Translations under genes and position numbers: made by a program
Notes under the pieces: model-generated
Told to the model about the DNA's origin: nothing
The model's database searches: none
What the model saw: only the letters and a program-made list of their open reading frames with translations
Shown: piece by piece, positions 7,012 to 50,764 of the stretch
Position numbering within the stretch: the first letter of the stretch is position 1
Layout of the letters: every line of letters begins with the position of its first letter
Source of the DNA: a virus
Strand: one strand, 5' to 3'
IMG/VR virus record: IMGVR_UViG_3300025451_000012
Location: 9,671-73,670 of that record
Length of the DNA: 64,000 nt

Positions 7012-7024
7012 AGGTTGACATTAA

Positions 7025-7053
7025 ATGGTTTCGGTGATATAATAGAATCTTAA
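7025..7053 (+). promoter_or_regulatory. early promoter (TTGACA-17-TATAAT), consensus copy
   Basis: sequence. Confidence 0.7.
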
Positions 7054-7076
7054 ACAGTAAAGAACAGGACTATCAA

Positions 7077-17951: not shown

Positions 17952-18485
17952 TTATTCTTTCTTTTTGCTTGCAGCTTTTACTACATATTTTTGATGATAG
18001 TTTTTCCATCCACTTAGATAATCTGTCCACTTGATCCAGCGATGCAGACCTTTCTTAGTTTGTACTAGAAAGCCCCATTCACGTTGTTGACGACCCATGA
18101 AGAACAATGTAGTAGCAGGTCCTACACTTTCATCTAGTTCAAGCCAGTGAAACTCATTTGCACTACGCTTGATGATAGAGCCCGGACCACGCCATGTTTG
18201 AAACTCTGCTAATTTTCTACCATCGTTGGCAAAGATAGGAGTGTGTTCCCAGTAACCACCTTTAAGGATAATCGTCATGTAGCCCCACGGGTGATCATGC
18301 ATGATTTGGTCATCACTGCGAACAATTTTGTGCAGTGTGACGTTGAAGGGGAACCAACTACGGTCCTTCAGGAACAGATAGTACCGATGTAGATAGTCTT
18401 CACCTGTCGCACGATCTGGAATCAATCGATATCGACCTAGTTTGTTCATAATGTTGTGAAAGAAACTCATAATACTCCTAGTCAA
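17952..18485 (-). CDS. cupin-domain protein
   Basis: HDHPWGYMTIILKGGYWEH resembles cupin metal-binding motif HxH..E..H. Confidence 0.45.
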   Translation of the reverse strand: MTRSIMSFFHNIMNKLGRYRLIPDRATGEDYLHRYYLFLKDRSWFPFNVTLHKIVRSDDQIMHDHPWGYMTIILKGGYWEHTPIFANDGRKLAEFQTWRGPGSIIKRSANEFHWLELDESVGPATTLFFMGRQQREWGFLVQTKKGLHRWIKWTDYLSGWKNYHQKYVVKAASKKKE

Positions 18486-18892: not shown

Positions 18893-19735
18893 TTAGATGT
18901 CCAGAAACTTCAACTCAAAAATATCGGCATGTTCGTCATGACCTGCATAGCCTCGAGGGTTGCAAACCACACGAGTTTCACCAACTACATAGTCAAACGG
19001 ATCATGAGTGTGACCATGAGTCCACAATTTGATCTGAGGACGATCCATGATGAACTCGCTAAGGTCCGAGCGGTAACCACCGTTCATAAGGTCCTGACCG
19101 ACATAGCGTTCATGCGTACTCAGAGTAGTAGGAGCGTGGTGCCCAACAACTACAAACTTTTCATCATGCATACCTTCAACAATGTTTTTGATATAACTGA
19201 GACTATTCCTATGACGACTAACCGTATGAGCAGGACGTAGTTTAGTATATCCAGCTTCATCGTTACGGATGATGCGGAAGTCGTTCATCATGTCAGTCAA
19301 GGCATGAAGTGTCAATGGATCACCTTTGTTACAGTCGGTCCACAATGTACAACCAATGAACGTATGCTCACCGATAGTCTTGATATCGTTTTCCAAAAAG
19401 TAAACGTTAGGTAATTGACCGCATTGAAAGCGCAGGTCATCAATAGAACCCTTCCACTTACCGTGATAGAATTCGTGATTGCCTGCAACATAGATAACAT
19501 GCGGGAACTCAAAACTGCAACGCTTTAGGAAGTCACGGAATCGTACACTCATTAACATTTTGTGACCAAAGTCACGCATACCACCTGATGTGTATGGATC
19601 GGGTGCAGGATGGTCATGCAAATAGTCAGCGACCATAATGTCACCTGACAGAATAAGGACCTCTGCACCCTCTGTGTTCTTGAGGTTGATATCTTGAAAC
19701 TCTAAGTGCAGGTCACTGCATAATGCTATTTTCAT
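18893..19735 (-). CDS. calcineurin-like metallophosphoesterase
   Basis: motifs CSDLHLE, GDIMVADY, VAGNHEFY, GHTHD. Confidence 0.75.
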   Translation of the reverse strand: MKIALCSDLHLEFQDINLKNTEGAEVLILSGDIMVADYLHDHPAPDPYTSGGMRDFGHKMLMSVRFRDFLKRCSFEFPHVIYVAGNHEFYHGKWKGSIDDLRFQCGQLPNVYFLENDIKTIGEHTFIGCTLWTDCNKGDPLTLHALTDMMNDFRIIRNDEAGYTKLRPAHTVSRHRNSLSYIKNIVEGMHDEKFVVVGHHAPTTLSTHERYVGQDLMNGGYRSDLSEFIMDRPQIKLWTHGHTHDPFDYVVGETRVVCNPRGYAGHDEHADIFELKFLDI

Positions 19736-21094: not shown

Positions 21095-21519
21095 TATGCA
21101 GCCGCCATTTCTTTAGCAAGAGCCTCGCTCAACACGGTCCACTCTGCACCTTCACTCACGAACCAGACACCGTCTTTCATCACGTAGAAATATTCAGCGT
21201 CAATGCCCTCAAACAACTCTTGGTCATTGAAAAATGTTTTGAACTCGATACCAGTCTCACCGCGATCACGACCATAGAAACGACATTGTTTAGCAATGTT
21301 GTCACCTTCGTAAACCATGCGGTCGTTGAAGTCAATTTTCTCGCCGATTTCTTTGCCCAACACGCTCATGTCACCCATTGCAACCAAGAAGTTAGCCTTG
21401 GACGAATCATAGTTAGCAAGCAGGACCTTGCCATTGTAGCTCAAGTAGCCGTCAGAATGACAGTAAATTGCTTTACACACATCACCATGCATCACACCAA
21501 TTGCTGAACGAGTAGACAT
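21094..21519 (-). CDS. hypothetical protein
   Basis: ORF track; early promoter 30 nt upstream. Confidence 0.55.
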   Translation of the reverse strand: MSTRSAIGVMHGDVCKAIYCHSDGYLSYNGKVLLANYDSSKANFLVAMGDMSVLGKEIGEKIDFNDRMVYEGDNIAKQCRFYGRDRGETGIEFKTFFNDQELFEGIDAEYFYVMKDGVWFVSEGAEWTVLSEALAKEMAAA

Positions 21520-21549
21520 TTTGATTTCCTTTTGACTGTTTAAGATTCT

Positions 21550-21578
21550 ATTATATCACCAAAACCATTTAATGTCAA
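21550..21578 (-). promoter_or_regulatory. early promoter (TTGACA-17-TATAAT, - strand) with conserved leader
   Basis: plus strand ATTATA..TGTCAA. Confidence 0.7.
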
Positions 21579-21820
21579 GCCATAGTCAACTGAATTGCCA
21601 AATCTTCCCAAGTTCCAGCGATACCGCATGCACATTGGTCAGCGATTCCATCTCCGGAGCGGGTGAATTCTAGTGCATCAAGCGCCTTTTGAGTAGCAGC
21701 ATTGCACTTGTAAAAGTCACCGACATTATTGCGAATCTGTTTAGCGGTAGAATAGAAACATGCTGGACCAACGATAACACGAAACTTCTGGGTCTGTTTG
21801 AAACGCTTGATAACTAACAT
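21575..21820 (-). CDS. hypothetical Cys-containing small protein
   Basis: ORF track. Confidence 0.5.
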   Translation of the reverse strand: MLVIKRFKQTQKFRVIVGPACFYSTAKQIRNNVGDFYKCNAATQKALDALEFTRSGDGIADQCACGIAGTWEDLAIQLTMA

Positions 21821-21852
21821 TTTGAGTCCTTTTCTTTACTGTCTAAGATTCT

Positions 21853-21881
21853 ATTATATACCCAAAACCATTTAATGTCAA
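21853..21881 (-). promoter_or_regulatory. early promoter (- strand)
   Basis: ATTATA-17-TGTCAA on plus. Confidence 0.65.
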
Positions 21882-22177
21882 GCGATTTCTGCGAGGATCC
21901 GATTGTAAACATCGGCCTTTGCCATGTAGTATTCGTAATCACGTTCGCCGGGACGAAAGTTTTTCCATTGATTCTGACCTGCATAGGACAGGATATCTTG
22001 TTCCAAAGTACCATCAGAATAGTTGGAGATGAAACCGTACATGTCATAGTGTGCAATGAAACCACTGCACAGATACAAAAAGTTGTAACCAGTCTTGTTC
22101 AGGTTATCAATGTTTTTCACTGCCTTGACCACGTTATTGACAATGAGAGTTTTTTGACGTTCTGTGAGTGCTTGCAT
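21878..22177 (-). CDS. hypothetical protein
   Basis: ORF track. Confidence 0.5.
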   Translation of the reverse strand: MQALTERQKTLIVNNVVKAVKNIDNLNKTGYNFLYLCSGFIAHYDMYGFISNYSDGTLEQDILSYAGQNQWKNFRPGERDYEYYMAKADVYNRILAEIA

Positions 22178-22210
22178 TTTCGTGTCCTTTAATTAACTGT
22201 CTATGTATGT

Positions 22211-22239
22211 ATTATATACCCAAAACCATTTAATGTCAA
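22211..22239 (-). promoter_or_regulatory. early promoter (- strand)
   Basis: ATTATA-17-TGTCAA. Confidence 0.65.
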
Positions 22240-22454
22240 GCCTTGAGAATGTCAGTGATCCGTTTGTGGATCATGTCCATTTCACTTTGTTCCAGATAGA
22301 AGTCGGTAGTAGGATCGTAGTACTGACCTTCTTTGTTGTCATAATACAACACTCGTCCCGAGAAGTTGAACGGGCCCTCAAGACCTTTGCGAGGACCGTA
22401 CTTTGTACGCATCATGTCCATTGTGTCTTTGTCTGCAACGATCTTGTAACCCAT
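22236..22454 (-). CDS. hypothetical protein
   Basis: ORF track. Confidence 0.5.
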   Translation of the reverse strand: MGYKIVADKDTMDMMRTKYGPRKGLEGPFNFSGRVLYYDNKEGQYYDPTTDFYLEQSEMDMIHKRITDILKA

Positions 22455-22484
22455 CTTGAACTCCTCTTGACTGTTTAAGATTCT

Positions 22485-22513
22485 ATTATATCACCAAACC
22501 CATTTAACGTCAA
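22485..22513 (-). promoter_or_regulatory. early promoter (TTGACG-17-TATAAT, - strand)
   Basis: ATTATA-17-CGTCAA. Confidence 0.6.
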
Positions 22514-24284: not shown

Positions 24285-24320
24285 ATAAAAATGAGGGCTT
24301 GTCAAGGCCCTCATTGTTTT
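24285..24320 (-). terminator. intrinsic terminator (ATGAGGGC-TTGTCAAG-GCCCTCAT) downstream of NadV
   Basis: 8-bp stem; A/T runs both sides. Confidence 0.6.
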
Positions 24321-25752
24321 ATTTACGAGCGTTTGCCCGAACTTCTTCAAAGGTGATTTCTTTTACAAGAGCACCATCACGGTAGACTTCTTCAAGAACC
24401 TCAGTCCAAACCGTACCTTTATCAGTCCATCCCATTGGCATAGTAACCGATGATTGATATTCGCCACCTGATTCCCAAAGTGTAACACGACCACGCTTGC
24501 TACGCTTGCCACTGTCAGTGACGGGGTCTTTGTACACATCGCGCCAGGTAAGTTTCCATCCTGACCCTTGATCACCGTCTTCTACCCATTCACGAATACC
24601 AACTGCACTGCACTTCATTGCCCACTGCATTGTGTCACGGTTTACTTGTTGCAGCAATGCACCACCTTGACCGAACGCCACGTTGTCTGCTGAGAACCCT
24701 GCGATTTCCATACAGAACAAAATGCTGTGGATGCTAGCGTGATTGATACCATCACCCTGAAGGATACGCACTGCTGGGTTTAGTACACGGTAGCCTTTAG
24801 CATTAGTAGTAGAACCAAAATGTTTTTCAAGAATGTACAAACACTTTACAACCACATCACTGGGGTTACCCGAGTCTGGGCGGACGACCAAAGTTGCGCC
24901 ACTGTCAAGGACGTCTTGTTTGAGTACGGTGCCCCAGAGTTCGCAGGCTTGGTAAATGTCGTAGCTGTCCGAGACTGCTGCAAAGATGCCACCTTGCTTG
25001 GCATTTTGTTTGACCATGTTGCGGTATGCGTCAACTTCATTTTCTTTTCCCCATGATGTTACTGTAGAGTGCTCCATAGCTGGGATACTAAATCCAGCGA
25101 TATCAGCATTGTAATACTCCCGAGCAACAAGTAAAGCGGATACAGTGTCCGACCCCATAAAATTAATGAGGTGGGCTGCTCCGCCGAGTCCCGCTGACTC
25201 CATAGAAGAAACACCGCGAGAGCCAAAGTCATGCAACTTAAAATCGATAAGAGTAGGGTCACCTGTTTTCTCCAATGCAGCAAGGATAATTTTTTTAGAT
25301 TCGTAGCTATTAGTTGCTACAGTAGTAGGATACCAAATTGCGCGGAGCAATGCAGTTTCTAGGAAACTTGTAAGCCAGAAGCATTTTGGATCGGTGTTTT
25401 CGATAGTAGCCAACACATTTTTTGTGGGGATGATAAGTCCCTCTGGGGCGCTCTTGATAACGACGGGGAGTCGTCCACCATGGGCTTCCAAGATATAGTC
25501 CCAACCCGCTCGATTGAACGGTTCGCCGTGCGCTGTGATAATGGCTTCTGCAACATCAATGTCTTCCTTTGTAATTGGGGTGGTGAGATACTCTTTAATA
25601 AATGCTTGCAGTCCAAAATAGACTGTATCGTTCCATTGTCCGCCGCGCGATTCAATGTAAGAGTAAACATACTCAGTACCTGCTGGATACTGGTTGAATT
25701 GACTGTATTTGTAGCTATCCGAATTGAGGATAATGTTTTTTGCGAGTTTCAT
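24319..25752 (-). CDS. nadV: nicotinamide phosphoribosyltransferase
   Basis: 477 aa; family-wide conserved segments (FGSRGVSSMESAGLGGAAHLINFMGSDT etc.). Confidence 0.9.
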   Translation of the reverse strand: MKLAKNIILNSDSYKYSQFNQYPAGTEYVYSYIESRGGQWNDTVYFGLQAFIKEYLTTPITKEDIDVAEAIITAHGEPFNRAGWDYILEAHGGRLPVVIKSAPEGLIIPTKNVLATIENTDPKCFWLTSFLETALLRAIWYPTTVATNSYESKKIILAALEKTGDPTLIDFKLHDFGSRGVSSMESAGLGGAAHLINFMGSDTVSALLVAREYYNADIAGFSIPAMEHSTVTSWGKENEVDAYRNMVKQNAKQGGIFAAVSDSYDIYQACELWGTVLKQDVLDSGATLVVRPDSGNPSDVVVKCLYILEKHFGSTTNAKGYRVLNPAVRILQGDGINHASIHSILFCMEIAGFSADNVAFGQGGALLQQVNRDTMQWAMKCSAVGIREWVEDGDQGSGWKLTWRDVYKDPVTDSGKRSKRGRVTLWESGGEYQSSVTMPMGWTDKGTVWTEVLEEVYRDGALVKEITFEEVRANARK

Positions 25753-25808
25753 AATAAAGTTCCTTTATTTTCTAAATTGCCTAGAGTCTATCTCTAGGAC
25801 TTAATAAC

Positions 25809-25837
25809 AGTATAACATAAAACCATTTTTATGTCAA
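25809..25837 (-). promoter_or_regulatory. early promoter (TTGACA-17-TATACT, - strand)
   Basis: sequence. Confidence 0.55.
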
Positions 25838-25841
25838 CCTT

Positions 25842-26072
25842 TTACAACCACTTTAGGGCAAATATCATTGCGTCCTTGTGTTTAGTAAATCTAAAGTTAG
25901 CAGCTTGAAAACTTTCTTGTTGTTTCCAACCTGCTTGTGCATTCTTATTGCACCAAACTTTCAGTGTGTATAGATGATCATCCCATTCAAAATATCGCAT
26001 GTTGTTAGGTTGTTTCAACACGATTGTATGTGGATGATTTCGTTCTGATTGCCGACGTTGCTTGCTGTTCAT
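25842..26072 (-). CDS. hypothetical basic protein
   Basis: ORF track. Confidence 0.45.
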   Translation of the reverse strand: MNSKQRRQSERNHPHTIVLKQPNNMRYFEWDDHLYTLKVWCNKNAQAGWKQQESFQAANFRFTKHKDAMIFALKWL

Positions 26073-26671
26073 GCAAATTCTACTAGGGTAACGGAGCCAC
26101 CTTTGGCAGCAACACCGTATGCAAATGCTTCAATCATACTAATGATAGCATCCTTATCACCACCTGCAAGTCCCATGCCAATGTAGGGTAAGCCGATTCG
26201 CTTGTCACCATACACATGAATGAGTTTTAGCAAAATCAATTCAAATGCCACATACTCAAAAACATCTGTACCTTGACTCATATTGTATTGAGTGTAGGCG
26301 TTGATGATAGTGAATTTACCAGAATCAAACTCTGTCCAATTGCCTAACTTCATATGTTCGCCACGTTCGGTTAGTCGGTCAATTTCTTGACACATGGGAT
26401 AGCGTTCTGCAATCTCTCGGGCAATGCCGCCGCCCATTGTGTTAAAGCAGTTACAGCCCTGCACAATAATATCAAACTCACCTGCTTCTGCTAGGTCAAG
26501 TAGGTTACCTTTTGTATGTTTTAGTTTATCGATATTCATTGGAAAGTCAATTGGGTTATCTGTGTTTGTATAGTGTGGAAATATAATTCCGGCTTCTGCC
26601 GCCATTTTTAGTTTGTCTGCTACTGTAACAATTGTTTCATTTGCCATCATTCGACCTCTCCGGTACTTCAC
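26069..26671 (-). CDS. macro-domain protein (ADP-ribose binding/hydrolase)
   Basis: FDIIVQGCNCFNTMGGGIAREIAERYP resembles macro-domain N..GGGV..AI motif. Confidence 0.65.
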   Translation of the reverse strand: MKYRRGRMMANETIVTVADKLKMAAEAGIIFPHYTNTDNPIDFPMNIDKLKHTKGNLLDLAEAGEFDIIVQGCNCFNTMGGGIAREIAERYPMCQEIDRLTERGEHMKLGNWTEFDSGKFTIINAYTQYNMSQGTDVFEYVAFELILLKLIHVYGDKRIGLPYIGMGLAGGDKDAIISMIEAFAYGVAAKGGSVTLVEFA

Positions 26672-26849
26672 TTAGTATATCTTCACACGATTGCAAACCT
26701 CGTTCCCATCGTGCCATCTGTTCACGGAATTCAGCAATGTTTGCACGATTGTGGAACAAGTCTCCGCTCCAAATTGCAGCGTCAATCTCGTCCATTGGTC
26801 CGTTTTCTAAACGATTGTAATGTTGTGTTGTCATTTTGCTGGAATCCAC
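26637..26849 (-). CDS. hypothetical protein
   Basis: ORF track. Confidence 0.4.
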   Translation of the reverse strand: MDSSKMTTQHYNRLENGPMDEIDAAIWSGDLFHNRANIAEFREQMARWERGLQSCEDILSEVPERSNDGK

Positions 26850-26997
26850 TGTACTGTTACACGAAAGCTACCTTGCATGATACCGTTGTCATCTTGCGGA
26901 ATATCAAAATCGTCAATCAATGAATCAGAAAAGAATTCATTAACATCACGATCCATATCTACAACGGATTCACCAATATACTCTTTATCAAATATAA

Positions 26998-27222
26998 TCA
27001 TTCTTCAACTCCGAAATGTTCTTTAATCTCTTGTGCAGTTCCTTTAAGAGTAACGCACCATTCGTCACCACTGTCTTCTGTAGGTTCAACAATGCTCAAA
27101 CATTCCCGAACAATCAACTCGGCGAACTTTTCTAATTCATTGTTACGAAATACAAGCCCGCTAATGCCTGCCCTTCGGCCAGCGCCAGCCTGTTCAGCAA
27201 GTTCTTTAATTCGTTCGTTCAT
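26998..27222 (-). CDS. small-protein paralog family member B (start refined to MNERIKELAEQ abutting upstream stop)
   Basis: see 20327..20560. Confidence 0.5.
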   Translation of the reverse strand: MNERIKELAEQAGAGRRAGISGLVFRNNELEKFAELIVRECLSIVEPTEDSGDEWCVTLKGTAQEIKEHFGVEE

Positions 27223-27223
27223 A

Positions 27224-28249
27224 TCAAGCTCCAACTGCCCACATGACCATGTCATAGTGGTCTTCAAAACATTCTTCACTACGCACCTCTGCGATAGGAA
27301 CCCATCGTGCTTTTTCAGCATCGTCACTGCCTTTTACTTTTGGCAACTCACCGTCGGGCAATACGATTTTGAAACAGTGTGTGATAATACGACCACGTGG
27401 TGAGCGATCCACAGCATCAAACACACGATTGTCAACAATACTACCGCGCAGTACAGGACCGGGCACTTTGATTAATGTTTCTTCACGCAATTCACGAATA
27501 GCCGCATCCAATACAGTCTTGTCAGTGTTTGCGTTAACATAACCACCGGGCAATGCCCACAAGCCACGACCTGGTTCAGCACGGCGTTTAATCATTAGTA
27601 CATGCCCTGATTGAATCACGACAGCATCCGCAGTAGAGAAAATAGGAGGGTATTTCAAGCTAGAATATTGTTTTGCGTTCTCAATCAAAAACTCACGCTC
27701 ACGGATAACTTGTTCGTATTCTTTGGACTCTTTGAATTGTTCCAAGAAGTCAAAAGTAGTAGGAGGAACAACGTTACGGATAAAATTCATATTCACATCA
27801 CGCTTGAAATACAAACTGCGAATGTCAGTAGCATCAAGTGGCTCTAGCAATTCAACTTCTTCAAAGCCCCATTGAGGGAACATGTCTAAGTAGAATGAGC
27901 TTGGGTCTTTTCTGTGACCGATGATACCAATTTTGTCACCGGGCTTAGTGTGTTTAGCAACCAATGCCTGTACACGAACTGCCCATGCTTGGTCGTTGTA
28001 AATTGTATCTGGGTTAGGTTCTACACTAACTGTTAGTGTACCACTGAAGCCATTTGTGGCATACTTAATCATTTGCCTACGTTCATCAAAGGTAAACGGA
28101 TTCTTATAAGTGCGGGGCTGATTAGCACTACCGCAGATAAAGATCAAATTGTCAGCTAGTGCAGTTGCACGACCTGCCAATAGTAAGTGAGCAGTGTGAA
28201 ATGGTTGAAAGCGTCCAATGAGGACTAGGGTATCGTACTTTTTTGACAT
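27224..28249 (-). CDS. natV: bifunctional NMN adenylyltransferase / Nudix ADP-ribose pyrophosphatase (NadM-Nudix, NatV-like)
   Basis: N-terminal GRFQPFHTAH (HxGH-type nucleotidyltransferase); C-terminal Nudix box GGYVNANTDKTVLDAAIRELREETLIKV. Confidence 0.85.
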   Translation of the reverse strand: MSKKYDTLVLIGRFQPFHTAHLLLAGRATALADNLIFICGSANQPRTYKNPFTFDERRQMIKYATNGFSGTLTVSVEPNPDTIYNDQAWAVRVQALVAKHTKPGDKIGIIGHRKDPSSFYLDMFPQWGFEEVELLEPLDATDIRSLYFKRDVNMNFIRNVVPPTTFDFLEQFKESKEYEQVIREREFLIENAKQYSSLKYPPIFSTADAVVIQSGHVLMIKRRAEPGRGLWALPGGYVNANTDKTVLDAAIRELREETLIKVPGPVLRGSIVDNRVFDAVDRSPRGRIITHCFKIVLPDGELPKVKGSDDAEKARWVPIAEVRSEECFEDHYDMVMWAVGA

Positions 28250-28313
28250 TGAAAAATCCTTTCAATAATGTCAGCGCGGAGTCTATCTCGTTGCTTGTAT
28301 GTTTATTTATCTT

Positions 28314-28342
28314 ATTATATCAGACTTTACTTTTTCTGTCAA
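28314..28342 (-). promoter_or_regulatory. early promoter (- strand) upstream of natV
   Basis: ATTATA-17-TGTCAA. Confidence 0.6.
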
Positions 28343-28574
28343 ACTTTAATCGCCAGAAAAGTCTCCAAACTCTTGACTGCTTTGTCCGATGCAGGCTTTT
28401 GGTCCCTGTCAAAAACTTGTTGCCGCACAACATACCGAAAGGTTTAGCTTTTGGCTGACCCTTCAGTAGTTTTTCGGCTATACGTTCGTATGTAGTCATT
28501 CTATAGTGCATATTCTCAACCCAATCTTGCTTTGATTTCCATGTAAAAAGTATGATACTTTGCCATCCTAGCAA
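28320..28574 (-). CDS. possible small basic protein (uncertain; overlaps promoter and 3' end of HD gene)
   Basis: ORF track only. Confidence 0.25.
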   Translation of the reverse strand: MLGWQSIILFTWKSKQDWVENMHYRMTTYERIAEKLLKGQPKAKPFGMLCGNKFLTGTKSLHRTKQSRVWRLFWRLKFDRKSKV

Positions 28575-28959
28575 TGTCTTTTTCAGTCACACCTTTCAAT
28601 CGACGGATATCAGTGTTGTGACGTAAATCAGCCATCTTGACACGCATTGCATCTACGTTCGCAAAGACACCTTCTTTGTATTCCTCAAGAGTTTGACCGG
28701 GTTGCTTGGTCAGTCTCCAGATACCATCAATAACTCTTTCACTGATACCAGCATCACGAAGGTCCTTGTAAGTCACCGAAGTGTCTTCAATTACATCATG
28801 ACCAAGAGCCATGCACATCAGTTCCTCGTCATCACTTTTCAGGTAATGCATAACTTTCAGAGGGTGCAGAATGTAAGGAGCTCCGCCTTTGTCAAATTGA
28901 CCGTCATGTGCGTTTGTAACAATGACAAGCATTGTAGCTAACATGTGACCTTTTTTCAT
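28516..28959 (-). CDS. RelA/SpoT-type HD-domain small alarmone hydrolase ((p)ppGpp pyrophosphohydrolase-like)
   Basis: AHDGQFDKGGAPYILHP, ALGHDVIEDT, KMADLRHNTDIRRL, AKYHTFYMEIKARLG track RelA/SpoT HD hydrolase signatures. Confidence 0.8.
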   Translation of the reverse strand: MKKGHMLATMLVIVTNAHDGQFDKGGAPYILHPLKVMHYLKSDDEELMCMALGHDVIEDTSVTYKDLRDAGISERVIDGIWRLTKQPGQTLEEYKEGVFANVDAMRVKMADLRHNTDIRRLKGVTEKDIARMAKYHTFYMEIKARLG

Positions 28960-28989: not shown

Positions 28990-29018
28990 AGTATATCATA
29001 CCATCCATTTACTGTCAA
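28990..29018 (-). promoter_or_regulatory. early promoter (TTGACA-17-TATACT, - strand)
   Basis: sequence. Confidence 0.55.
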
Positions 29019-29029
29019 CCTTTTAACCC

Positions 29030-29060
29030 GAAAAAAAGAGTACCGAAGTACTCTTTTTCT
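29030..29060. terminator. intrinsic terminator AGAGTAC-CGAA-GTACTCT flanked by A7 and T5 (bidirectional); terminates rIIB transcript
   Basis: identical hairpin to 23117..23134. Confidence 0.7.
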
Positions 29061-29062
29061 AC

Positions 29063-30103
29063 TTAACCCATTTCATTAGGGAAGGGCCAAGGACCATCTG
29101 CTGCGTTTGATACTGGGGCAGTCTTTGCGACGGTCACGTATTGATACCGAGGGGCGACTCCCCATTCAAAATCGTCCGTACCTTTACTAAAGCCTTCTTC
29201 GTAGTCCCTGTTGTAACGAACACCAGGGTTGTGCTCATTGAATTCTTCGTAGCCATCAGTGTAACCACGATAGAATTCACTAGAGCCAGTCTTAGGAGCA
29301 GTTACTACTGGCTTATGAATGTTGTTACTTGCGTTACTTTGCACCGGCTTAGAAAATGCAGTATCAACTTCATCACCATCATTACCGATTTCACCGATAA
29401 CTTCGTACTTGCATGTACGACCCTTAGCGTTGTTATAGTCGCTAGGGATAGAGACCACATCAGCAGGATTGATTTTCAAAATCATAACACGGCTGTCAGA
29501 ACCATTACCAAAGTGTGGCAGATATTCCTGTGAGCAGAAGTGCAAACCAGTACTACAAGTTTGATCCTTGTTGTCGTCAACTTCGTTGCGTTCCATTTCA
29601 CAGATGTAACCAACACTGTTGTTAAAGGTACCACTGTGAATGTCCATGTAATCGCTGCGAACTTTCTTGTAAGCCAAGAAGCAACCATCAGGAGTGATTG
29701 GCAAACTGTTCTTTTCCAAGAAGCCATACAACTCAGTGACAGCCCGCTTAGATGGGTTAGCCATCAAGTTTTCCATGAACGCCACGAGAGGTTCAACTGG
29801 GAAGCCATCTTGCAACATTGCAATCATTCGGCTAGTCAATGCATTGTGCATTGGTTTGCCTTTCCAGAACAATTCCTCACCCTGGACACTTACGTTACCA
29901 GCACCAAAATTCAACACAACCTTGATAGGCTCGATGATATTCTTAACCAAGTCCCAATCACTTGCCTTGATAGCATCCAACACCTTTTGATAGGTGATGT
30001 GTGATTTACTAATTGTGTGTGGCTTGTTGCCAATCACTACGGTAATGTTATTACCTTGAACGATATACGGAAAACTCATTTTAGACTCCTTTAGCCTGGT
30101 CAA
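29063..30103 (-). CDS. rIIB: rIIB protector-from-prophage-induced-early-lysis protein
   Basis: collinear similarity to T4 rIIB C-terminal half (NPSKRAVTELYGFL; DQTCSTGLHFCSQEYLPHFG; DVVSIPSDYNNAKGRTCKYEV). Confidence 0.9.
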   Translation of the reverse strand: MTRLKESKMSFPYIVQGNNITVVIGNKPHTISKSHITYQKVLDAIKASDWDLVKNIIEPIKVVLNFGAGNVSVQGEELFWKGKPMHNALTSRMIAMLQDGFPVEPLVAFMENLMANPSKRAVTELYGFLEKNSLPITPDGCFLAYKKVRSDYMDIHSGTFNNSVGYICEMERNEVDDNKDQTCSTGLHFCSQEYLPHFGNGSDSRVMILKINPADVVSIPSDYNNAKGRTCKYEVIGEIGNDGDEVDTAFSKPVQSNASNNIHKPVVTAPKTGSSEFYRGYTDGYEEFNEHNPGVRYNRDYEEGFSKGTDDFEWGVAPRYQYVTVAKTAPVSNAADGPWPFPNEMG

Positions 30104-32237
30104 TCAAATTAATATACTCTGCCAAATCAGCACCTTCGATGCTGTACTTGCTAAGACTTTTAATTAGCGGGTAACGCTTTTTAATAGTCTCAACCTCTTT
30201 TCTGTACTTATCAATCAGTGTAGTTGGGTCAACATTTGTTGACGTAGCTACCTTGTACTGACGGCACAACCATTCCAAACTCTGACGCAAACTAGTGTCA
30301 GCTTCTTTCACATCCTTGAACGTGTTGAACAACACTAGATAAGGGCTTGTTGCACTTTTCACAAGCATAGTAGCATTATACTGGAAAAGTTCTTTGTAGT
30401 CAATACTCTGTTTGACCAAACCCATCACATCAGCTTGTCCCAACAGAGCCAGTTTACCCTTAATGTGTTCGTCAAGGTTAACCCAGTTCTTTTGAGTTTT
30501 GATGTTTTCAATATCAGTCTTACGCACACCGTAAATGTCTTGAGTGTAGATACCACTCTTGCGCAGATGAACGTCCAAACTCTTAACATCCTCAACAACG
30601 CCGAGGTTCTTGTAACCACTCAAGGGCAAGTAGTAGTAAGTTTTAGTAGCATCAAAGTTAGAGGCCTTACCACCGTCATGCCATACCATCGGGGCACGTT
30701 CATTGTACCTGCGTCGGCTACCTTCTTCCAAGCGCATGATAGTAACGTTCTGGCCAATACCACTTGCACGTTCCTTCTCAAGCAAAGAACTTGCTACCAC
30801 AATCTTATCTTCCGGAGGACTAGACAATGCAGCAAAGAATGCCTTTGTGTTCACTGGCTTAGTCTTATCAACCACATCAATCACATATACCGAAGTGTTA
30901 TGATTATCACTCTTAGAATTTTTCCAGTGAAATTTAGCTCGTTCAGTAGCACCGACCTTTGTATCGTTGATAACAAAACAAACACTGCTATTTACTGAAA
31001 TTTCCCATTCATCAAAGTAAACAGTAGTACCGTTAACATTGTTGTATCCATGAACTGGCTTGATCGTAGAGCAAGCATTGTAACCACGACTCCGACTGAA
31101 AGCACGAATAGTAATATTGTACTTGGATGCCAACTCTTTCACTGGAAATTTGAATTTCTTCATAGCATTCCAACGATTGAGGTTCGGGGTATACAACTCA
31201 AACTTGGTGTCAGTGATATACTTGACAACAGCCTGATTGAACAATTTTTCCTCATGACGCTTTTCCAAATAGAAAGCACGTTCCCACAAGTTGGTAATCT
31301 TGTCAGCCTCAGTAGCAATGTGAATTGCCAATTGTGCGTTCAACAGTTCCAACTTATTTTTGATAGCGTTGATAGTTTGTGGAATGTAGCTCAAGCCCTC
31401 ACGACTTGCTTGGAAGTCAAGTTCGCCGATAGCAAACTCCATCACTAGTCCACAACTCAACAAACCTTGCAGACCACCGAGAGCCTTATCAGCACTAGGA
31501 ATGTCAGTCAACGGATACTTGATGTTACCCATGATAGCATAGCTATATTGTCCGCCATCAGTATAGTGAACACCAGGGATGATGTTTTCTTCCTTGTACG
31601 CAGGGTCTCGGAACTTGAATTCAGAGTAACCACTAACTACTGGACGCAGTTTGAAGTACTCGTAAACATAGCGGGCCTCAGTACGAAACTTGTCAAAATC
31701 GGAACGATCTTCCACAGCAAACTTAACCTCAACACCAGCTGGGTCAGTAGTTTGTTCTTCCATCATTTTAGCGATAGACGGGACACCTGCTTCATTGATA
31801 AAGGCTGTGTAAACACCCTTAACGCCATCTTTAACCGCAGTGACTGTAAAGTTGTCGGTGTAACTGAAGGGAGATTTTGAACCGAGACCCAATGCTCCGA
31901 TGAATTCGTTAGAATCAGTCTTTGTGGACTCAAAATAAGTGGTGTAGATGTTAGTGACTTGATCACCTGAAAGACCTGTACCATAGTCACGGATACTGAA
32001 CCAAGGTTCAAGACTGTTGGGCAAGTGAACGTCAAAGGGCGTGTCTTGTTTACCGGCTGCGGTATGCGAGTCAACCGCGTTGCAAGAAAGTTCACGCACG
32101 ATTGCACGAATCTTGTTTGCGTACAAACCTGATGAAAGAATGTTAAAAGCCTTCGCACTATTGCGAATGCGGAACTCACCAATCTGTCCTACGTTGGACA
32201 TGATTGCTTCGTTTTGCGGTGCTGCATTGATAATCAT
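30081..32237 (-). CDS. rIIA: rIIA protein
   Basis: 718 aa; N-terminus SAKAFNILSSGLYANKIRAIVRELSCNAVDSH matches T4 rIIA ([30 protein letters not shown]); GALGLGSKSPFSYTDNFTVT conserved. Confidence 0.9.
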   Translation of the reverse strand: MIINAAPQNEAIMSNVGQIGEFRIRNSAKAFNILSSGLYANKIRAIVRELSCNAVDSHTAAGKQDTPFDVHLPNSLEPWFSIRDYGTGLSGDQVTNIYTTYFESTKTDSNEFIGALGLGSKSPFSYTDNFTVTAVKDGVKGVYTAFINEAGVPSIAKMMEEQTTDPAGVEVKFAVEDRSDFDKFRTEARYVYEYFKLRPVVSGYSEFKFRDPAYKEENIIPGVHYTDGGQYSYAIMGNIKYPLTDIPSADKALGGLQGLLSCGLVMEFAIGELDFQASREGLSYIPQTINAIKNKLELLNAQLAIHIATEADKITNLWERAFYLEKRHEEKLFNQAVVKYITDTKFELYTPNLNRWNAMKKFKFPVKELASKYNITIRAFSRSRGYNACSTIKPVHGYNNVNGTTVYFDEWEISVNSSVCFVINDTKVGATERAKFHWKNSKSDNHNTSVYVIDVVDKTKPVNTKAFFAALSSPPEDKIVVASSLLEKERASGIGQNVTIMRLEEGSRRRYNERAPMVWHDGGKASNFDATKTYYYLPLSGYKNLGVVEDVKSLDVHLRKSGIYTQDIYGVRKTDIENIKTQKNWVNLDEHIKGKLALLGQADVMGLVKQSIDYKELFQYNATMLVKSATSPYLVLFNTFKDVKEADTSLRQSLEWLCRQYKVATSTNVDPTTLIDKYRKEVETIKKRYPLIKSLSKYSIEGADLAEYINLIDQAKGV

Positions 32238-32270
32238 TTATGTTTCCTGTTCTCTACTGTTTAAGATTCT

Positions 32271-32299
32271 ATTATATCACCGAAACCATTTAATGTCAA
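32271..32299 (-). promoter_or_regulatory. early promoter (- strand), consensus copy upstream of rIIA
   Basis: ATTATA-17-TGTCAA + conserved leader. Confidence 0.7.
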
Positions 32300-33445
32300 T
32301 TATTGGTAAGAAGCACTAGAATTGTAGGGCCCGATTCCAATTACGTTTCCCCGAGATTTAGGAATCAACCACGGAACCCAATTAACAGATTGGTCATCAA
32401 CTAGCAAAGTTGAAATTCCTGTAGAAAAATTATAAGCCTGTATTGCCATTCCTCGATACCAACCACCTACACTGGAGTTATCACTGGTTCGACTGACGTA
32501 CAACATAGCCACACTGTTAGTAGTAATGATAGTGAAGTCGTTGACTACACCGTGCCCGGGAAGCGGTGGGATTACAGTTGTAGTGTTACCAAAAATGCCA
32601 TTTCCATCACCGTACCACACCTTAGTAGGACTTGATGTCGCTCCATTCTGATCCCAGTCATTACCGCTTGCAATGATATCAATAACTCCGTCATTATTTA
32701 AATCGACTAACTCAACATTGAAGTAGCCCGTAGTTGTATTATCATTGATTCCGGTTGGTTGCTTGACGAAGGTACCATTACGTTGGTTTATAAAAATAGC
32801 TAATGTGCCGCCAGCAGCACGAACTAAATCGGGATACACATCACCGTTTATATCCGCAGCCGATACACCGTGATTGAATTCTGCGTCTAGTACATCGCTT
32901 AGTACGTAGTTACCTCGTCCATTGCTGAGTAAGAGTTTACTTTTTTCTCCGGGGAAAGGAACATCGTCATAGCCATGACATGCAACTAGTACATCCGGGA
33001 TATCATCTTTGTTAAAATCTGCAACAATCGCTTTGCGTGGATGCAAACACCCCTTGACGCTTGACACCTTAGTAAGTGTTTTATCCGAATTTATAGTCCA
33101 AAAAGTGAAGTCACTTAGGTATTTCACATCACTGGTTACAGTTGAAAAGCTATCGTGCTGCGTTGTATAATTTTGATTAGCAGTGAATACCCCAAGTTCA
33201 CCTTGCTTGTTGAACTCACCAAACCCATATGCTACAGGAACCCAACCAGACAATCCGTAATTGCTTGTAGGGAATGTAATCGTATCTATAGGATAAGATT
33301 TAAAATTCTTGTATGAGGTATCATAGAGCGATCCAGCTATGGCAGGCGCTGTTACAGTCACCGGTACGACTGGATTGGTACCTCCGCCTCCCCCGCATGC
33401 GGACAATAGAAGTGAAATTAGGATGACTGGTAAAGTATGTTTCAT
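32300..33445 (-). CDS. lipoprotein with FG-GAP (integrin-alpha-like beta-propeller) repeats
   Basis: lipobox LLSAC + G-rich linker; repeated DxNxDGxxD-like motifs (ADFNKDDIPDVLVA, ADINGDVYPDLV, VDLNNDGVIDIIA). Confidence 0.6.
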   Translation of the reverse strand: MKHTLPVILISLLLSACGGGGGTNPVVPVTVTAPAIAGSLYDTSYKNFKSYPIDTITFPTSNYGLSGWVPVAYGFGEFNKQGELGVFTANQNYTTQHDSFSTVTSDVKYLSDFTFWTINSDKTLTKVSSVKGCLHPRKAIVADFNKDDIPDVLVACHGYDDVPFPGEKSKLLLSNGRGNYVLSDVLDAEFNHGVSAADINGDVYPDLVRAAGGTLAIFINQRNGTFVKQPTGINDNTTTGYFNVELVDLNNDGVIDIIASGNDWDQNGATSSPTKVWYGDGNGIFGNTTTVIPPLPGHGVVNDFTIITTNSVAMLYVSRTSDNSSVGGWYRGMAIQAYNFSTGISTLLVDDQSVNWVPWLIPKSRGNVIGIGPYNSSASYQ

Positions 33446-33559: not shown

Positions 33560-34150
33560 TTAAATTCGTTTAGTCAGAATGCTATCAATGAGTCCGTAAT
33601 CTAGTGCAGCTTTTGCACTCATGAAATTGTCACGTTCCATGTCAGCACTGAACTGGTCGAATGTTTTACCGGTACTGTTGTGGTCAACATAGATTTGGGT
33701 CAGCACTTTCTTCATAGCCAAAATCTCAGTAACCTGAATCAGCATGTCAGTTGCTTGACCGCGACTACCGCCCGATGGTTGATGGATCATGTGACGTGCG
33801 TTTGGCAACATCATGCGCTTACCTTTAGCACCTGATGTTGCAAGCAAGCTGCCCATTGAACAGGCTTGACCCATAACGATTGTTTGTACATCGGGCTTGA
33901 TAAACTGCATTGCATCATAGATAGCCATACCCGCAGTCACTGATCCACCCGGACTATTAATGTACATTGAAATGTCTTTGCCACTGTCTTCACTTTCCAA
34001 GAACAATAGCTGGGCAACAATCAGATTTGCCATTTGATCATGCACTTCGCCTTCGAGCAAAATGACTCGGTCACGCAACAAACGACTATAAATGTCATAA
34101 CTGCGCTCACCCTTGCTGGTTGTTTCGATTACGATTGGAACTAAACTCAT
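33560..34150 (-). CDS. clpP: ATP-dependent Clp protease proteolytic subunit
   Basis: catalytic Ser motif [10 protein letters not shown], His in MIHQPSGG; overall ClpP collinearity. Confidence 0.9.
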
Positions 34151-37426: not shown

Positions 37427-37852
37427 ACTCTTTGGCTTCATTTCTTCAGGAAGTTTTCGTTCTAGGTGAAGAGTTAAGATACCGTTAGCATTTTCTGCAT
37501 CTTTGACTTCTACGTGTTCAGCGAGAGTAAACTCACGCACAAAATTCCTATTACTAATACCATGGTGTAGATACTCTTTAGGTTCATCAAAGTTCATGTG
37601 CTTCGTTCCGGTGATGACTAACACCCTATTTTCAATTTGGATATCAATTTCCCCTTCAGTAAACCCAGCAACTGCTAGTTCAATATCAAAGTCATTTTCA
37701 GAACGTTTAACAATGTTATAGGGAGGGTAGTTTGTAGTTGTCTGCCCTGCATTCATTCGCATCAGTTCATCTAACACTGATTCAAACCCAATACCAAACT
37801 TATGAATTGATGGAATATCAATTGAACGTAGCGTTAGTGTTCCATTAGACAT
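37403..37852 (-). CDS. small heat-shock protein (Hsp20/alpha-crystallin, IbpA-like)
   Basis: [23 protein letters not shown]...[12 protein letters not shown] pattern of IbpA/IbpB. Confidence 0.85.
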
Positions 37853-39746
37853 TCTTACTCTCCTTCACTTCTGCATCAACTACGTTATCATCAACCGGTG
37901 CTTCAGTAGCAGATGATTGCTCTGCTGCCTCTGCATCCTGTTTCACCTTAGTAATTGGTCCAATTGCTTCGTACAGTTTGGGAATAGCTTCTTGGATAAC
38001 AGATACGTCTTCACCCTTAACTGCTTCTTCCAATGCTTTGATAGCGTCTTCCGCTAGTGTTTTCTCTTCGGCAGTTACTTTGTCACCATACTTGTCAAAG
38101 TCTTCCTTGAATGTACGTAGTGTACCTTCTGCACTGTTACGTGCTTCAATTAACTCACGTGCCTTCTTATCAGATTCTGCATTAAGTTCAGCGTCTTTAA
38201 CCATTGCTTGAATTTCAGCTTCGGTCAATCCACTATTAGCTTTGATAGTGATCTTATTTTCTTTGCCAGTGTTCTTATCTTTAGCACTTACACTCAAGAT
38301 ACCGTTAGCATCGATGTCCAATGTAACTTCAATCTGAGGCATACCGCGTCTTGCTGGAACAATACCTTCAAGATTGAACTCACCCAATAGTTTATTGAAC
38401 TGTGCTAGCTCACGTTCACCTTGAAATGCTTTGATAGTAACTGCAGGTTGATTATCTTCCGCTGTACTGAATGTTTGACTAGCTTTAGTAGGAATAGTTG
38501 TGTTCTTTTGAATCAACTTACTCATTACACCGCCCATAGTCTCGATACCAAGACTTAGTGGAGTCACATCAAGCAACAATACGTCTTTACGTCCACCACC
38601 TAGCACATCACCTTGAATAGCTGCGCCTGCTGCTACTGCTTCGTCTGGGTTAACATCTTTACGAGGTGCCTTGCCGAAGAATTTCTCAACTGCTTCAACA
38701 ACTTTAGGCATACGTGTCATACCACCGACGAGGATAACCTCGTCAATGTCTGCGTTAGTAACGCCTGCATCTTTCATAGCAATCTTGCATGGCTCAATGC
38801 TACGTAGGATCAATTCTTCAACTAGACTTTCTAGTTTAGAACGATTGATTGTAATGTTCAAATGCTTTGGACCACTTGCATCCGCAGTAACGTAAGGCAA
38901 GTTAACACTAGTGCTTGCAGAACTAGACAATTCAATCTTAGCTTTTTCTGCCGCTTCTTTCAAACGTTGCAATGCAAGCATATCCTTTTTCAAGTCAATG
39001 CCCTGTTCTTGTTTGAATGTATCAACCAAGAAATCCATAATGCGTTGGTCAAAGTCTTCACCACCTAAGAATGTATCACCATTCGTAGACAATACTTCAA
39101 ACTGTTTATCACCATCAACGTCTGCAATTTCAATGATAGATACGTCAAACGTACCACCACCCAAGTCATAGACTGCAATCTTGCGGTCTTTCTTGTCTTG
39201 CTTGTCAACACCGTACGCAAGTGCTGCCGCAGTTGGTTCATTGATAATACGCAACACTTCTAATCCAGCAATACGACCTGCATCCTTAGTTGCTTGACGT
39301 TGACTATCATTAAAGTATGCTGGCACTGTGATAACTGCTTGAGTTACTTCGTGACCAAGATAATCTTCTGCGGTCTTCTTCATCTTACGCAAGACTTCGG
39401 CAGAGATTTGCGGGGGCGCTAGCTTATCTTCGTTGACTTGAACCCAAGCATCACCATTCTCATTCTTGATAATAGTGTATGGCATCAAGTCAATGTCTTT
39501 TTGTACAGCTTGTTCATCAAACTTACGTCCGATCAATCGCTTGCTAGCATAAATTGTGTTTTTGGGGTTTGTAACTGCTTGACGTTTAGCACTTGCACCT
39601 ACCAAGATTTCACCGTTAGCATATGCTACGATACTTGGCGTGGTTCTAGTACCTTCGCTGTTTTCAATTATTTTGGGGATTCCGTTTTCGATGACGGCTA
39701 CGCATGAATTTGTGGTACCTAAGTCGATACCGATGACTTTGCTCAT
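37845..39746 (-). CDS. dnaK: molecular chaperone DnaK (Hsp70)
   Basis: 633 aa; [22 protein letters not shown], full-length Hsp70 collinearity. Confidence 0.95.
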
Positions 39747-49901: not shown

Positions 49902-49931
49902 GATGTATTCCTTGTTACTGTTTAAGATTCT

Positions 49932-49960
49932 ATTATATCACCGAAACCATTTAATGTCAA
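49932..49960 (-). promoter_or_regulatory. early promoter (- strand)
   Basis: ATTATA-17-TGTCAA. Confidence 0.65.
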
Positions 49961-50456: not shown

Positions 50457-50487
50457 ATTAGTTCCTTGTTTTTCAGTGTATGTGTAC

Positions 50488-50516
50488 ATTATATACCCAA
50501 AACCATTTAATGTCAA
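50488..50516 (-). promoter_or_regulatory. early promoter (- strand); second copy of duplicated cassette
   Basis: sequence. Confidence 0.6.
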
Positions 50517-50764
50517 GTTTTGGTTTCCGTAAAATAATGCACTGGAATCAGAACACCGTTGACCGGAACTTCCGTACGCTTCTCTACACTGTAGAACTCC
50601 ATTGTCTTGTAGTGCTTCCAGAAGTCACCGCAGGCGAAGTAGGCTTTAGAACTACCACAGATTTCCACTGCAAAGAAAAACTGGTCGTCCCAGGGCTTCT
50701 TGGAGTTCTGGCGGATGCTCTTGTACTTACGGATGACTTCTGGATGTGCTGTATATTTAAACAT
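50513..50764 (-). CDS. hypothetical protein
   Basis: ORF track. Confidence 0.5.
   Translation of the reverse strand: MFKYTAHPEVIRKYKSIRQNSKKPWDDQFFFAVEICGSSKAYFACGDFWKHYKTMEFYSVEKRTEVPVNGVLIPVHYFTETKT

Follow-up and report, generated by a model that had tools for sequence, protein, structure and literature searches.

A NARP2-type NAD+ reconstitution operon with an embedded macrodomain gene in the early region of an uncultivated jumbo phage

Introduction

Depletion of NAD+ is among the commonest anti-phage strategies of bacteria, and the known phage answers to it are the pathways NARP1, NARP1-AP, NARP2 and NARP3. NARP2 is defined by the NadV and NatV pair of Vibrio phage KVP40, which abolishes defence by Thoeris and DSR2 (bioRxiv 10.1101/2024.02.11.579819) and on its own also cancels the RES-domain defence aRES (bioRxiv 10.64898/2026.01.28.702374). 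Here we describe a block of nine genes on a 64,000-nucleotide stretch of viral DNA (positions 9,671 to 73,670 of IMG/VR virus record IMGVR_UViG_3300025451_000012; hereafter the window, whose own numbering is used throughout). In this block, at 24319–28959, the two genes of a NARP2-type pair bracket a gene for a macrodomain protein, and a gene for a small HD-domain hydrolase lies at its upstream end.

The sole macrodomain extension described for such pathways is that of NARP1, where the dependence of the pathway on free ADP-ribose (ADPR) makes it necessary; NARP2 is thought not to require one. The enzyme in question, Adpp, is an ADPR-1''-phosphate phosphatase encoded by 15% of NARP1 operons, and it lets NARP1 overcome aRES; the survey that reported it covered NARP1 operons alone (bioRxiv 10.64898/2026.01.28.702374). 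Adpp belongs with the phage T4 protein Tk.4 to a family whose characterised members remove substituents at the 1'' position of ADPR. Tk.4 has been renamed AdfM, and its deletion sensitises T4 to DarTG2 (HIDEN-SEQ preprint 10.1101/2025.11.20.689424).

NARP2, phage alarmone hydrolases and counter-defence by phage macrodomains are thus all published, and the NARP2 pair and the alarmone hydrolase reported here are new instances of known tools, useful mainly for annotation. What is new is a NARP2 operon extended by a macrodomain gene, together with an active-site variant of that macrodomain (Gln64/Lys166) which dominates in a large environmental clade that lacks cultured members.

A NARP2-type pair bracketing a macrodomain gene

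The source of the window is an environmental clade of uncultivated jumbo phages that has no cultured member. When the block was compared by megablast with 50,697 phage records, no match appeared, so all comparisons were made at the protein level. The macrodomain protein recurs, 100% identical over the aligned 99%, on metagenome contigs of the Joint Genome Institute (JGI) of up to 359 kb, and IMG/VR holds many related contigs of 100–364 kb. All nine genes of the block lie on the minus strand. They include the four that a preliminary description, made from the sequence alone, had named there (NadV, macrodomain, NatV and HD), and these are real genes at the positions it gave.

NadV matches the Pfam families NAMPT_N (E = 2e-28) and NAPRTase (E = 1e-52), NCBIfam PRK09198 (612 bits against a cut-off of 405) and phrog_448 (E = 1e-152). 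It is 44% identical to NadV of the KVP40 type, and 25–28% identical to the NARP1 enzyme Namat of phages PVP-SE1 and EM. NatV matches CTP_transf_like (E = 2.5e-11), NUDIX (E = 1.8e-19) and phrog_395 (E = 4e-73), scores 369 bits with NCBIfam PRK05379, the bifunctional nicotinamide mononucleotide (NMN) adenylyltransferase/Nudix family, just below the equivalog cut-off of 397, and is 40–50% identical to annotated phage NadM-Nudix proteins. It carries the motifs GRFQPFHTAH and RELREE. No gene for Adps, the PRPS-like ADPR pyrophosphokinase of NARP1, or for another Prs-like enzyme was found anywhere in the 64-kb window by tblastn with the Adps of PVP-SE1 (E up to 0.01). The locus therefore combines a Nampt-type enzyme with an NMN adenylyltransferase of the same phage and has no Adps partner within 64 kb, which is the composition of NARP2. 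The two-enzyme route to NAD+ that the preliminary description had proposed is borne out by these domain and family scores as a NARP2-type pair. Judging from the validated homologues, the pair is predicted with high confidence to rebuild NAD+ from nicotinamide, phosphoribosyl pyrophosphate (PRPP) and ATP. Searches for other anti-defence genes gave no phage Sir2 in the window, and nothing below E = 0.15 for the anti-RES inhibitor aRad1 (aRad1a and aRad1b) in the window and 95 related loci.

The pair shares enzyme types, domain architectures and an early-region location with the NARP2 of KVP40 (Osterman et al.), and both lack Adps. The differences are in sequence detail and in gene arrangement. 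The nucleotidyltransferase motif of the window NatV reads HTAH rather than HxGH and its Nudix box has a two-residue insertion, both typical of the clade. In the window the macrodomain gene and four small open reading frames (ORFs) lie between the two genes, the whole forming an operon-like unit within which NadV has a promoter of its own, whereas the KVP40-type phage PVA8 has no NatV-type gene annotated within 6 kb of NadV, and six other cultured phages have NatV next to NadV, separated by no more than one small ORF.

From NatV to the last of these small ORFs, orf76, neighbouring genes always overlap, at an ATGA or by 14 nt, or are separated by 2 nt, and the run of overlapping stops and starts therefore reads as one translationally coupled operon. 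The macrodomain gene has no promoter of its own and reads as coupled inside this operon, together with the four small ORFs. The arrangement recurs among relatives. It was followed in 80 IMG/VR loci anchored on a NatV 64–86% identical to that of the window, with gene order counted in 57 of them and HD adjacency in 68. NadV lies within 4 kb downstream of NatV in 53 of the 57 loci, and the macrodomain gene lies between the two in 35. Conversely, NatV or NadV is found within 2 kb of the macrodomain gene in 8 of 13 loci anchored on the latter.

One natural variant was found on JGI contig Ga0075464_10000063 (sample 3300006805; locus L102), which matches the window at 99.96% identity across 12.6 kb. 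Its NatV has a stop codon at E133, between the NMN adenylyltransferase and Nudix domains (window 27853; L102 4795), and the substitution W231R, where relatives have an invariant Trp (window 27559; L102 5089). Four of the five single-nucleotide differences between the contigs fall within NatV or the macrodomain gene, the two in the latter being apparently silent. The NatV mutations could be a natural loss of a costly NARP2 function or a sequencing artefact.

The macrodomain protein

The macrodomain protein starts at the ATG at 26650, with the ribosome-binding site GGAGAGG ahead of ATG ATG. Checks against profile hidden Markov models gave a divided picture of the block: NAPRTase, CTP_transf_like and NUDIX score above their Pfam cut-offs, whereas Macro (17.9 bits against 22) and HD_4 (20.8 against 27.2) fall below theirs. 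Rejecting the macrodomain and HD assignments on these cut-offs alone was considered and overruled by PHROG, PDB, structural and homologue evidence, so both domains named in the preliminary description stand on other grounds. For the macrodomain protein these are a match to phrog_335 (E = 1.9e-38), PDB sequence matches to Poa1p and Mycobacterium tuberculosis DarG, and BLASTP matches to Adpp of phage phiAbaA1 (42% identity, E = 5e-28), Tk.4 of T4 (33%, E = 2e-18) and Adpp of Vibrio phage Gary (31%, E of about 3e-16 to 3e-15). Identity is 42% to gp124 of Synechococcus phage B23 and 37% to gp232 of PVP-SE1. The AlphaFold2 model (mean pLDDT 79, pTM 0.71) retrieves DarG, TARG1, BT1257, Poa1p and SCO6735 in Foldseek (E of about 1e-7 to 6e-6), with E of about 2e-7 and target-normalised TM-scores of 0.68–0.78 for the DarG, TARG1 and Poa1p macrodomains, DarG being the best. 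The protein is a macrodomain of the ALC1-like class and belongs to the phage Tk.4/AdfM/Adpp (Poa1p-like) family, which is very widespread in phages (tblastn matches in 2,638 records).

Within the clade the ligand-binding and glycine-rich loops are invariant. Asn67, equivalent to N26 of Poa1p and N27 of Adpp, is invariant, as is Gln121, and Gly74 (G33, in the glycine-rich loop) is nearly so. The equivalent of Adpp S30 is Thr71, as in phage Adele.

Residues 1–45 (window 26516–26650) form an N-terminal extension that contains the near-invariant motif PHYTNTDNPIDFP and is modelled with low confidence. Short-form relatives of about 152 residues have neither the extension nor orf65 upstream.

Among described proteins, the nearest in setting is Adpp of the NARP1-AP operon of Vibrio phage Gary (Osterman et al., bioRxiv 10.64898/2026.01.28.702374), a Poa1p-like macrodomain that is likewise embedded in an NAD+ reconstitution operon. 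Homology is clear at the identities given above, and the essential Asn is kept; however, the pathway of the window is NARP2, for which ADPR is not a substrate, and H24 and the Trp of the GGDW motif are replaced by Gln and Lys. With T4 Tk.4/AdfM the protein shares the phrog_335 family, the motifs CNCF, MGxGIA and YTQ(Y/F) and a P-x-I-G glycine-rich loop, but Tk.4 retains both the His and the Trp, and its gene lies between vs and tk, away from NAD genes. The DarG2 macrodomain and the AdfM of chimalliviruses (PhiKZ gp104; PMC13309987) are of the same ALC1-like class. Their active sites comprise N22/K80 in DarG2 and N23/K78 in chimallivirus AdfM (PMC13309987), whereas the window protein has Gln64 and Gln121, and its 193 residues leave no DarT-binding C-terminal domain.

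Two of the phages used for comparison carry macrodomain homologues and NARP1-type Namat genes, the latter annotated as nicotinate or nicotinamide phosphoribosyltransferase: PVP-SE1 (gp095–gp097, L100 22127–25251) and Pakpunavirus EM (L002 4396–6603). In Pseudomonas phage EM a Poa1p-like macrodomain gene adjoins Namat, which is the NARP1-AP layout. In PVP-SE1 the macrodomain gene gp232 (annotated as 'similar to Tk.4') is about 67 kb from the Namat genes, near which lies a phage Sir2 homologue, gp108.

The HD-domain protein

The HD protein matches phrog_990 (E = 5e-58) and NCBIfam spoT_relA (52 bits). Its best PDB match, from end to end, is entry 7SMG, '(p)ppApp hydrolase' (Aph1; E = 2.7e-24), followed by the hydrolase domains of Rel and SpoT. 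Since its 147 residues cover only the hydrolase part of the long Rel profile (positions 4–149 of 687), with no synthetase, TGS or ACT domain, the protein is a small alarmone hydrolase and not a long RelA/SpoT homologue. No variation is seen in 83 relatives at the catalytic residues H32, H54-D55, E58-D59, D111 and N115.

Aph1 of Bacteroides caccae is specific for (p)ppApp and has a six-residue signature comprising D24, R96, D116, R119, K133 and Y134; its D24R/R119A double mutant gains activity on ppGpp (PMC10083569). Five of these six are kept in the window protein as D23, D117, R120, K134 and Y135, which are again invariant in the 83 relatives and include all five near the active site, while R96 is replaced by Gly97. 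The two proteins are of similar length (147 and 149 residues) and share the HD and ED motifs, Aph1 being the best solved relative. Their settings differ: Aph1 belongs to a prophage toxin cassette, whereas no lysogeny gene was seen among the ORFs examined in the phage that encodes the window protein, and the HD gene has neither a (p)ppApp synthetase toxin gene nor one for Tis1-like immunity beside it.

Another relative is gp220 of PVP-SE1 (58% identity over 136 residues), likewise a stand-alone early phage gene, in a phage that carries NARP1-type genes where the window phage has NARP2. The stand-alone small alarmone hydrolase of PVP-SE1 (PbcSpo) neutralises the toxins CapRel, PhRel, PhRel2, FaRel and FaRel2 (Jimmy et al. 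2020, PMC7229694). We infer that gp220 is this enzyme, as it is the sole HD match in the 96 kb of PVP-SE1 that follow the first 50 kb; HD and macrodomain homologues both lie within 100–146 kb of that genome, and none within 50–100 kb. The window protein is a single-domain hydrolase of the Aph1/PbcSpo type, and its signature residues suggest (p)ppApp and toxSAS products as the likely substrates rather than (p)ppGpp. The preliminary description, which had called it a RelA/SpoT HD-type small alarmone hydrolase, was right as to kind; it is the (p)ppGpp substrate that the signature residues disfavour.

Proposed function and active-site changes

We propose that the locus is an early counter-defence block in which NARP2 carries a built-in macrodomain enzyme that would release ADPR, accompanied by a separate HD hydrolase directed at (p)ppApp or toxSAS products. 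We hold this reading to be probable, though well short of secure. NadV would convert nicotinamide and PRPP to NMN, from which the NadM domain of NatV would make NAD+ with ATP. NadM-Nudix proteins split ADPR into AMP and ribose-5-phosphate, so the Nudix domain of NatV would dispose in this way of free ADPR left by NADases, and host Prs can return ribose-5-phosphate to PRPP. The macrodomain protein would free ADPR from 1''-blocked forms and so feed the loop of NatV Nudix domain, PRPP and NadV; the family and the gene context give this step moderate confidence. Such blocked forms could be ADPR-1''-phosphate, the product of RES-type NAD+ phosphorylases, or else other esters of ADPR or adducts of ADP-ribose. 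A macrodomain-extended NARP2 would then be the NARP2 counterpart of NARP1-AP. Separately, and from its own promoter, the HD protein most likely removes 3'-pyrophosphates from adenosine nucleotides ((p)ppApp), thereby detoxifying toxSAS-type immunity. Gene identities, operon architecture with its recurrence, and the residue changes described below are observed directly; the enzymatic activities, the macrodomain substrate and the direction of metabolite flow are predicted. If the proposal is correct, recycling of ADPR through the Nudix domain matters for NARP2 too.

Several observations weigh against this proposal. The first concern the active site. The catalytic His of the family (H23 in Poa1p, H24 in Adpp) is Gln64 in the window protein, and Gln occupies this position in 117 of 120 close homologues. 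His is found there in Poa1p, in all NARP1 Adpp proteins examined, in T4 Tk.4 and in seven other homologues from cultured phages. H24A was made as the inactivating mutant of Adpp (bioRxiv 10.64898/2026.01.28.702374), and the His of Poa1p has also been mutated to Ala in a published study. Likewise, the Trp of the GGDW motif, invariant in Poa1p, Adpp, Tk.4 and the cultured-phage homologues examined, is Lys166, and its position varies freely within the clade (K, Q, P, R, V, S or E). With both His and Trp lost, ADPR-1''-phosphate phosphatase activity may be altered or absent. A conserved His of the N-terminal extension was considered as a substitute for the lost catalytic His and rejected, because the short-form relatives, which have no extension, also have Gln. 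Moreover, as NARP2 by itself defeats aRES, a phosphatase is not required against that defence.

The remaining points concern linkage. In none of eight cultured phages (B23, RSP15, LucasX, DSS3_MAL1, Milchi, DLP_6, K64-1 and BUCT-ZZ01) is a macrodomain gene near the NARP2 pair, and since the related loci belong to one phage clade, shared descent accounts for part of the recurrence. The HD gene adjoins NatV in just 1 of the 68 NatV-anchored loci; of 49 loci anchored on the HD gene, 13 have NatV or NadV next to it. In the closest large relative the HD gene is about 24 kb away, beyond rIIA and rIIB. Phages resembling rV5 have the same loose order of HD, ATPase, macrodomain and SleB genes without any NARP2 genes, and the neighbourhood is therefore in part inherited early-region synteny. 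One conserved island of four genes, as the preliminary description had drawn it, was rejected for the HD gene on these synteny counts, while its tie of the macrodomain gene to NatV and NadV holds in 35 of 57 loci.

The macrodomain protein could instead be an anti-DarTG2 factor in the manner of T4 Tk.4/AdfM, removing ADP-ribose from thymidine of phage DNA, its position within NARP2 being incidental clustering of early genes. The preliminary description had similarly offered it as an eraser of DarT-type ADP-ribosylation. We regard this as unlikely, yet as the best-founded of the alternatives. It draws on membership of the same phage family as T4 tk.4, at 33% identity (E = 2e-18), on the DarTG2 sensitivity of the tk.4 deletion, and on DarG macrodomains being the best structural matches, to which DarG profile scores add a weak signal (25 bits in NCBIfam against a cut-off of 250; PADLOC likewise gave only weak DarG, at 24 bits, and Nudix matches). 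The residues are not DarG-like, however. The positions of DarG2 N22 and K80 correspond to Gln64 and Gln121 in an HMMER sequence alignment to 5M3I, which is not a structural superposition, so Gln64 stands where Tk.4 has His and where DarG2 and chimallivirus AdfM have Asn (N22 and N23); a DarG-like catalytic Lys was looked for in the protein and not found, and the Trp common to the Tk.4 family is lost. SCO6735 cleaves ADP-ribosylated thymidine with Gln at the catalytic-Lys position, just where the window protein has Gln121, and the missing Lys is for that reason not taken as excluding DNA de-ADP-ribosylation. Position also speaks against it: the gene lies exactly between NatV and NadV, translationally coupled, and does so in 35 of 57 relatives, which goes beyond a loose grouping of early genes. 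Thus the macrodomain itself is confirmed and the eraser idea keeps some likelihood, while the operon context favours recycling of NAD+ and ADPR.

Alternatively, the block could serve auxiliary metabolism, supplying NAD+ to NAD-dependent phage enzymes while the HD protein degrades (p)ppGpp to suppress the host stringent response. NARP2 does raise NAD+ even without a defence system (bioRxiv 10.1101/2024.02.11.579819), the HD protein is related to the hydrolase domains of SpoT and Rel, and the PbcSpo-type enzyme ATfaRel is listed among those acting on both nucleotides. Yet the HD family keeps, without variation, five of the six residues by which Aph1 excludes (p)ppGpp, including the equivalents of D24 and R119, whose double mutation admits ppGpp, and homologues of all three components show direct anti-defence phenotypes. 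For NARP2 the metabolic and counter-defence readings are not mutually exclusive; as an account of the block, the metabolic one appears improbable.

Similarly doubtful, in our estimate, is that the Gln64/Lys166 macrodomain, instead of acting as an ADPR-1''-phosphate phosphatase or as a DarT2 eraser, has been retargeted to another 1''-linked ADPR species, cleaving or sequestering a Thoeris-type signal, such as 1''-2' or 1''-3' glycocyclic ADPR or histidine-ADPR, or sensing ADPR so as to switch on the costly NARP2 enzymes only during destruction of NAD+. NatV, macrodomain protein and NadV would then be a coupled device that first kills the signal or senses the attack and then rebuilds NAD+, and the macrodomain enzyme family would have added another substrate to its repertoire in the arms race over ADP-ribose.

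Least probable is that the variant has lost hydrolysis and merely binds ADP-ribose-derived molecules, as an immune-signal sponge or as a sensor gating a pathway reported as metabolically costly and toxic (bioRxiv 10.1101/2024.02.11.579819): both residues invariant elsewhere in the family are changed, the Lys166 position is free to vary while the ligand-binding loops are not, and the near-identical natural variant has a nonsense mutation in NatV, but Asn67 (required in Adpp) and Gln121 remain invariant, Gln is similar in chemistry to the Asn that is catalytic at this position in DarG-type macrodomains, and no macrodomain sponge is described in the literature consulted.

Architecture and transcription signals of the block

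The coordinates of the nine genes and of the signals between them are collected in Table 1. The preliminary description had placed terminators on both flanks of the block and given each gene its own early promoter. Both terminators are real, each folding at about −14 kcal/mol with z below −3.8; the fold of the upstream one (−14.1 kcal/mol, z = −3.9) was equalled by none of 200 shuffles. Promoters were found for the HD, NatV and NadV genes, and none upstream of the macrodomain gene. Across the whole window, 36 near-consensus sigma70 sites were counted against 2.6 in shuffled sequence; nearly all have a 17-bp spacer, and their strand matches the coding strand. The NatV promoter sits within the 3' end of orf63, and NadV has its internal promoter although it is part of the operon-like NatV–macrodomain–NadV unit.

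Table 1 Genes and transcription signals of the block, in upstream-to-downstream order.
Feature	Window position	Strand	Remarks
Intrinsic terminator after rIIB, upstream block boundary	29031–29060	−	Hairpin AAAAAGAGUAC-UUCG-GUACUCUUUUU followed by a U run
Sigma70-type promoter of HD gene	28990–29018	−	TTGACA-17-TATACT with TG extension, 11/12 matches
HD small alarmone hydrolase, 147 aa	28516–28959	−	Aph1/PbcSpo type
orf63, small basic protein between HD and NatV	28320–28511	−	No family match
Sigma70-type promoter of NatV operon	28314–28342	−	Perfect TTGACA-17-TATAAT with TG extension, 12/12 matches
NatV, bifunctional NadM + Nudix ADP-ribose pyrophosphatase, 341 aa	27224–28249	−
orf74, small ORF	26998–27222	−	Start 2 nt past NatV stop; no family match
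orf56, small ORF	26831–27001	−	ATGA overlap with orf74
orf65, small ORF	26637–26834	−	ATGA overlap with orf56, 14-nt overlap with macrodomain gene; no family match
Macrodomain protein, 193 aa	26069–26650	−	Gln64/Lys166 variant
orf76, small basic ORF, final gene of NatV operon	25842–26072	−	ATGA overlap with macrodomain gene; no family match
Sigma70-type promoter of NadV	25809–25837	−	TTGACA-17-TATACT with TG extension, 11/12 matches
NadV, nicotinamide phosphoribosyltransferase (Nampt), 477 aa	24319–25752	−
Intrinsic terminator after NadV	24290–24315	−	Terminator scan; hairpin −14.2 kcal/mol, z = −4.4

The block contains five small ORFs (63, 74, 56, 65 and 76 residues) that the preliminary description had not mentioned, and each has tblastn relatives in related contigs. 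The ATG of orf63 lies 4 nt past the HD stop, and its relatives are 65–83% identical in loci L008, L020, L021 and L076 and occur also in several NatV-anchored loci. Several diverged paralogues of orf74 (33–49% identity) are present, often in tandem, in many related contigs, with L006, L021, L025, L040, L051 and L061 among them. The product of orf56 matches phrog_11659 (E = 5.7e-15), a family of unknown function, and is 96% identical in L021. In L003, L006, L007, L015 and L021, orf65 (68–95% identity) lies directly upstream of a long-form macrodomain gene. For orf76, identity is 63% in L003 and 39–46% in L008 and L031.

The loop of the terminator after NadV (24290–24315) holds the −35 hexamer TTGACA of the promoter of the next gene, which encodes an AAA ATPase; the two signals thus occupy one stretch of 26 bp.

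Early-region surroundings

Directly upstream, the block is preceded by homologues of rIIA and rIIB, and genes for the AAA ATPase and a SleB-type lysin lie downstream. The evidence supports an early region under sigma70-type promoters, directly downstream of rIIA/rIIB. The rIIB (346 residues) and rIIA (718 residues) genes occupy 29063–32237 (minus strand) and in many relatives directly precede NatV, with no HD gene between.

Promoter cassettes of about 45–65 bp, 86–100% identical to one another, are repeated 5' of successive small early genes. Copies lie at 21517–21578, 21818–21883, 22175–22241, 22452–22513 and 50476–50517, and further ones at 7015–7069, 49916–49960 and about 32245–32299.

Other recognisable genes, all on the minus strand, encode a full-length Hsp70/DnaK homologue (37845–39746; Pfam HSP70, 847 bits) and a ClpP-type protease (33560–34150; 267 bits). 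In the early region are also a phrog_4786 'cysteine dioxygenase'-like protein (17952–18485), a calcineurin-like metallophosphoesterase (18893–19735) and an FG-GAP repeat protein (32300–33445) whose N-terminus resembles a lipoprotein signal (…LLSAC).

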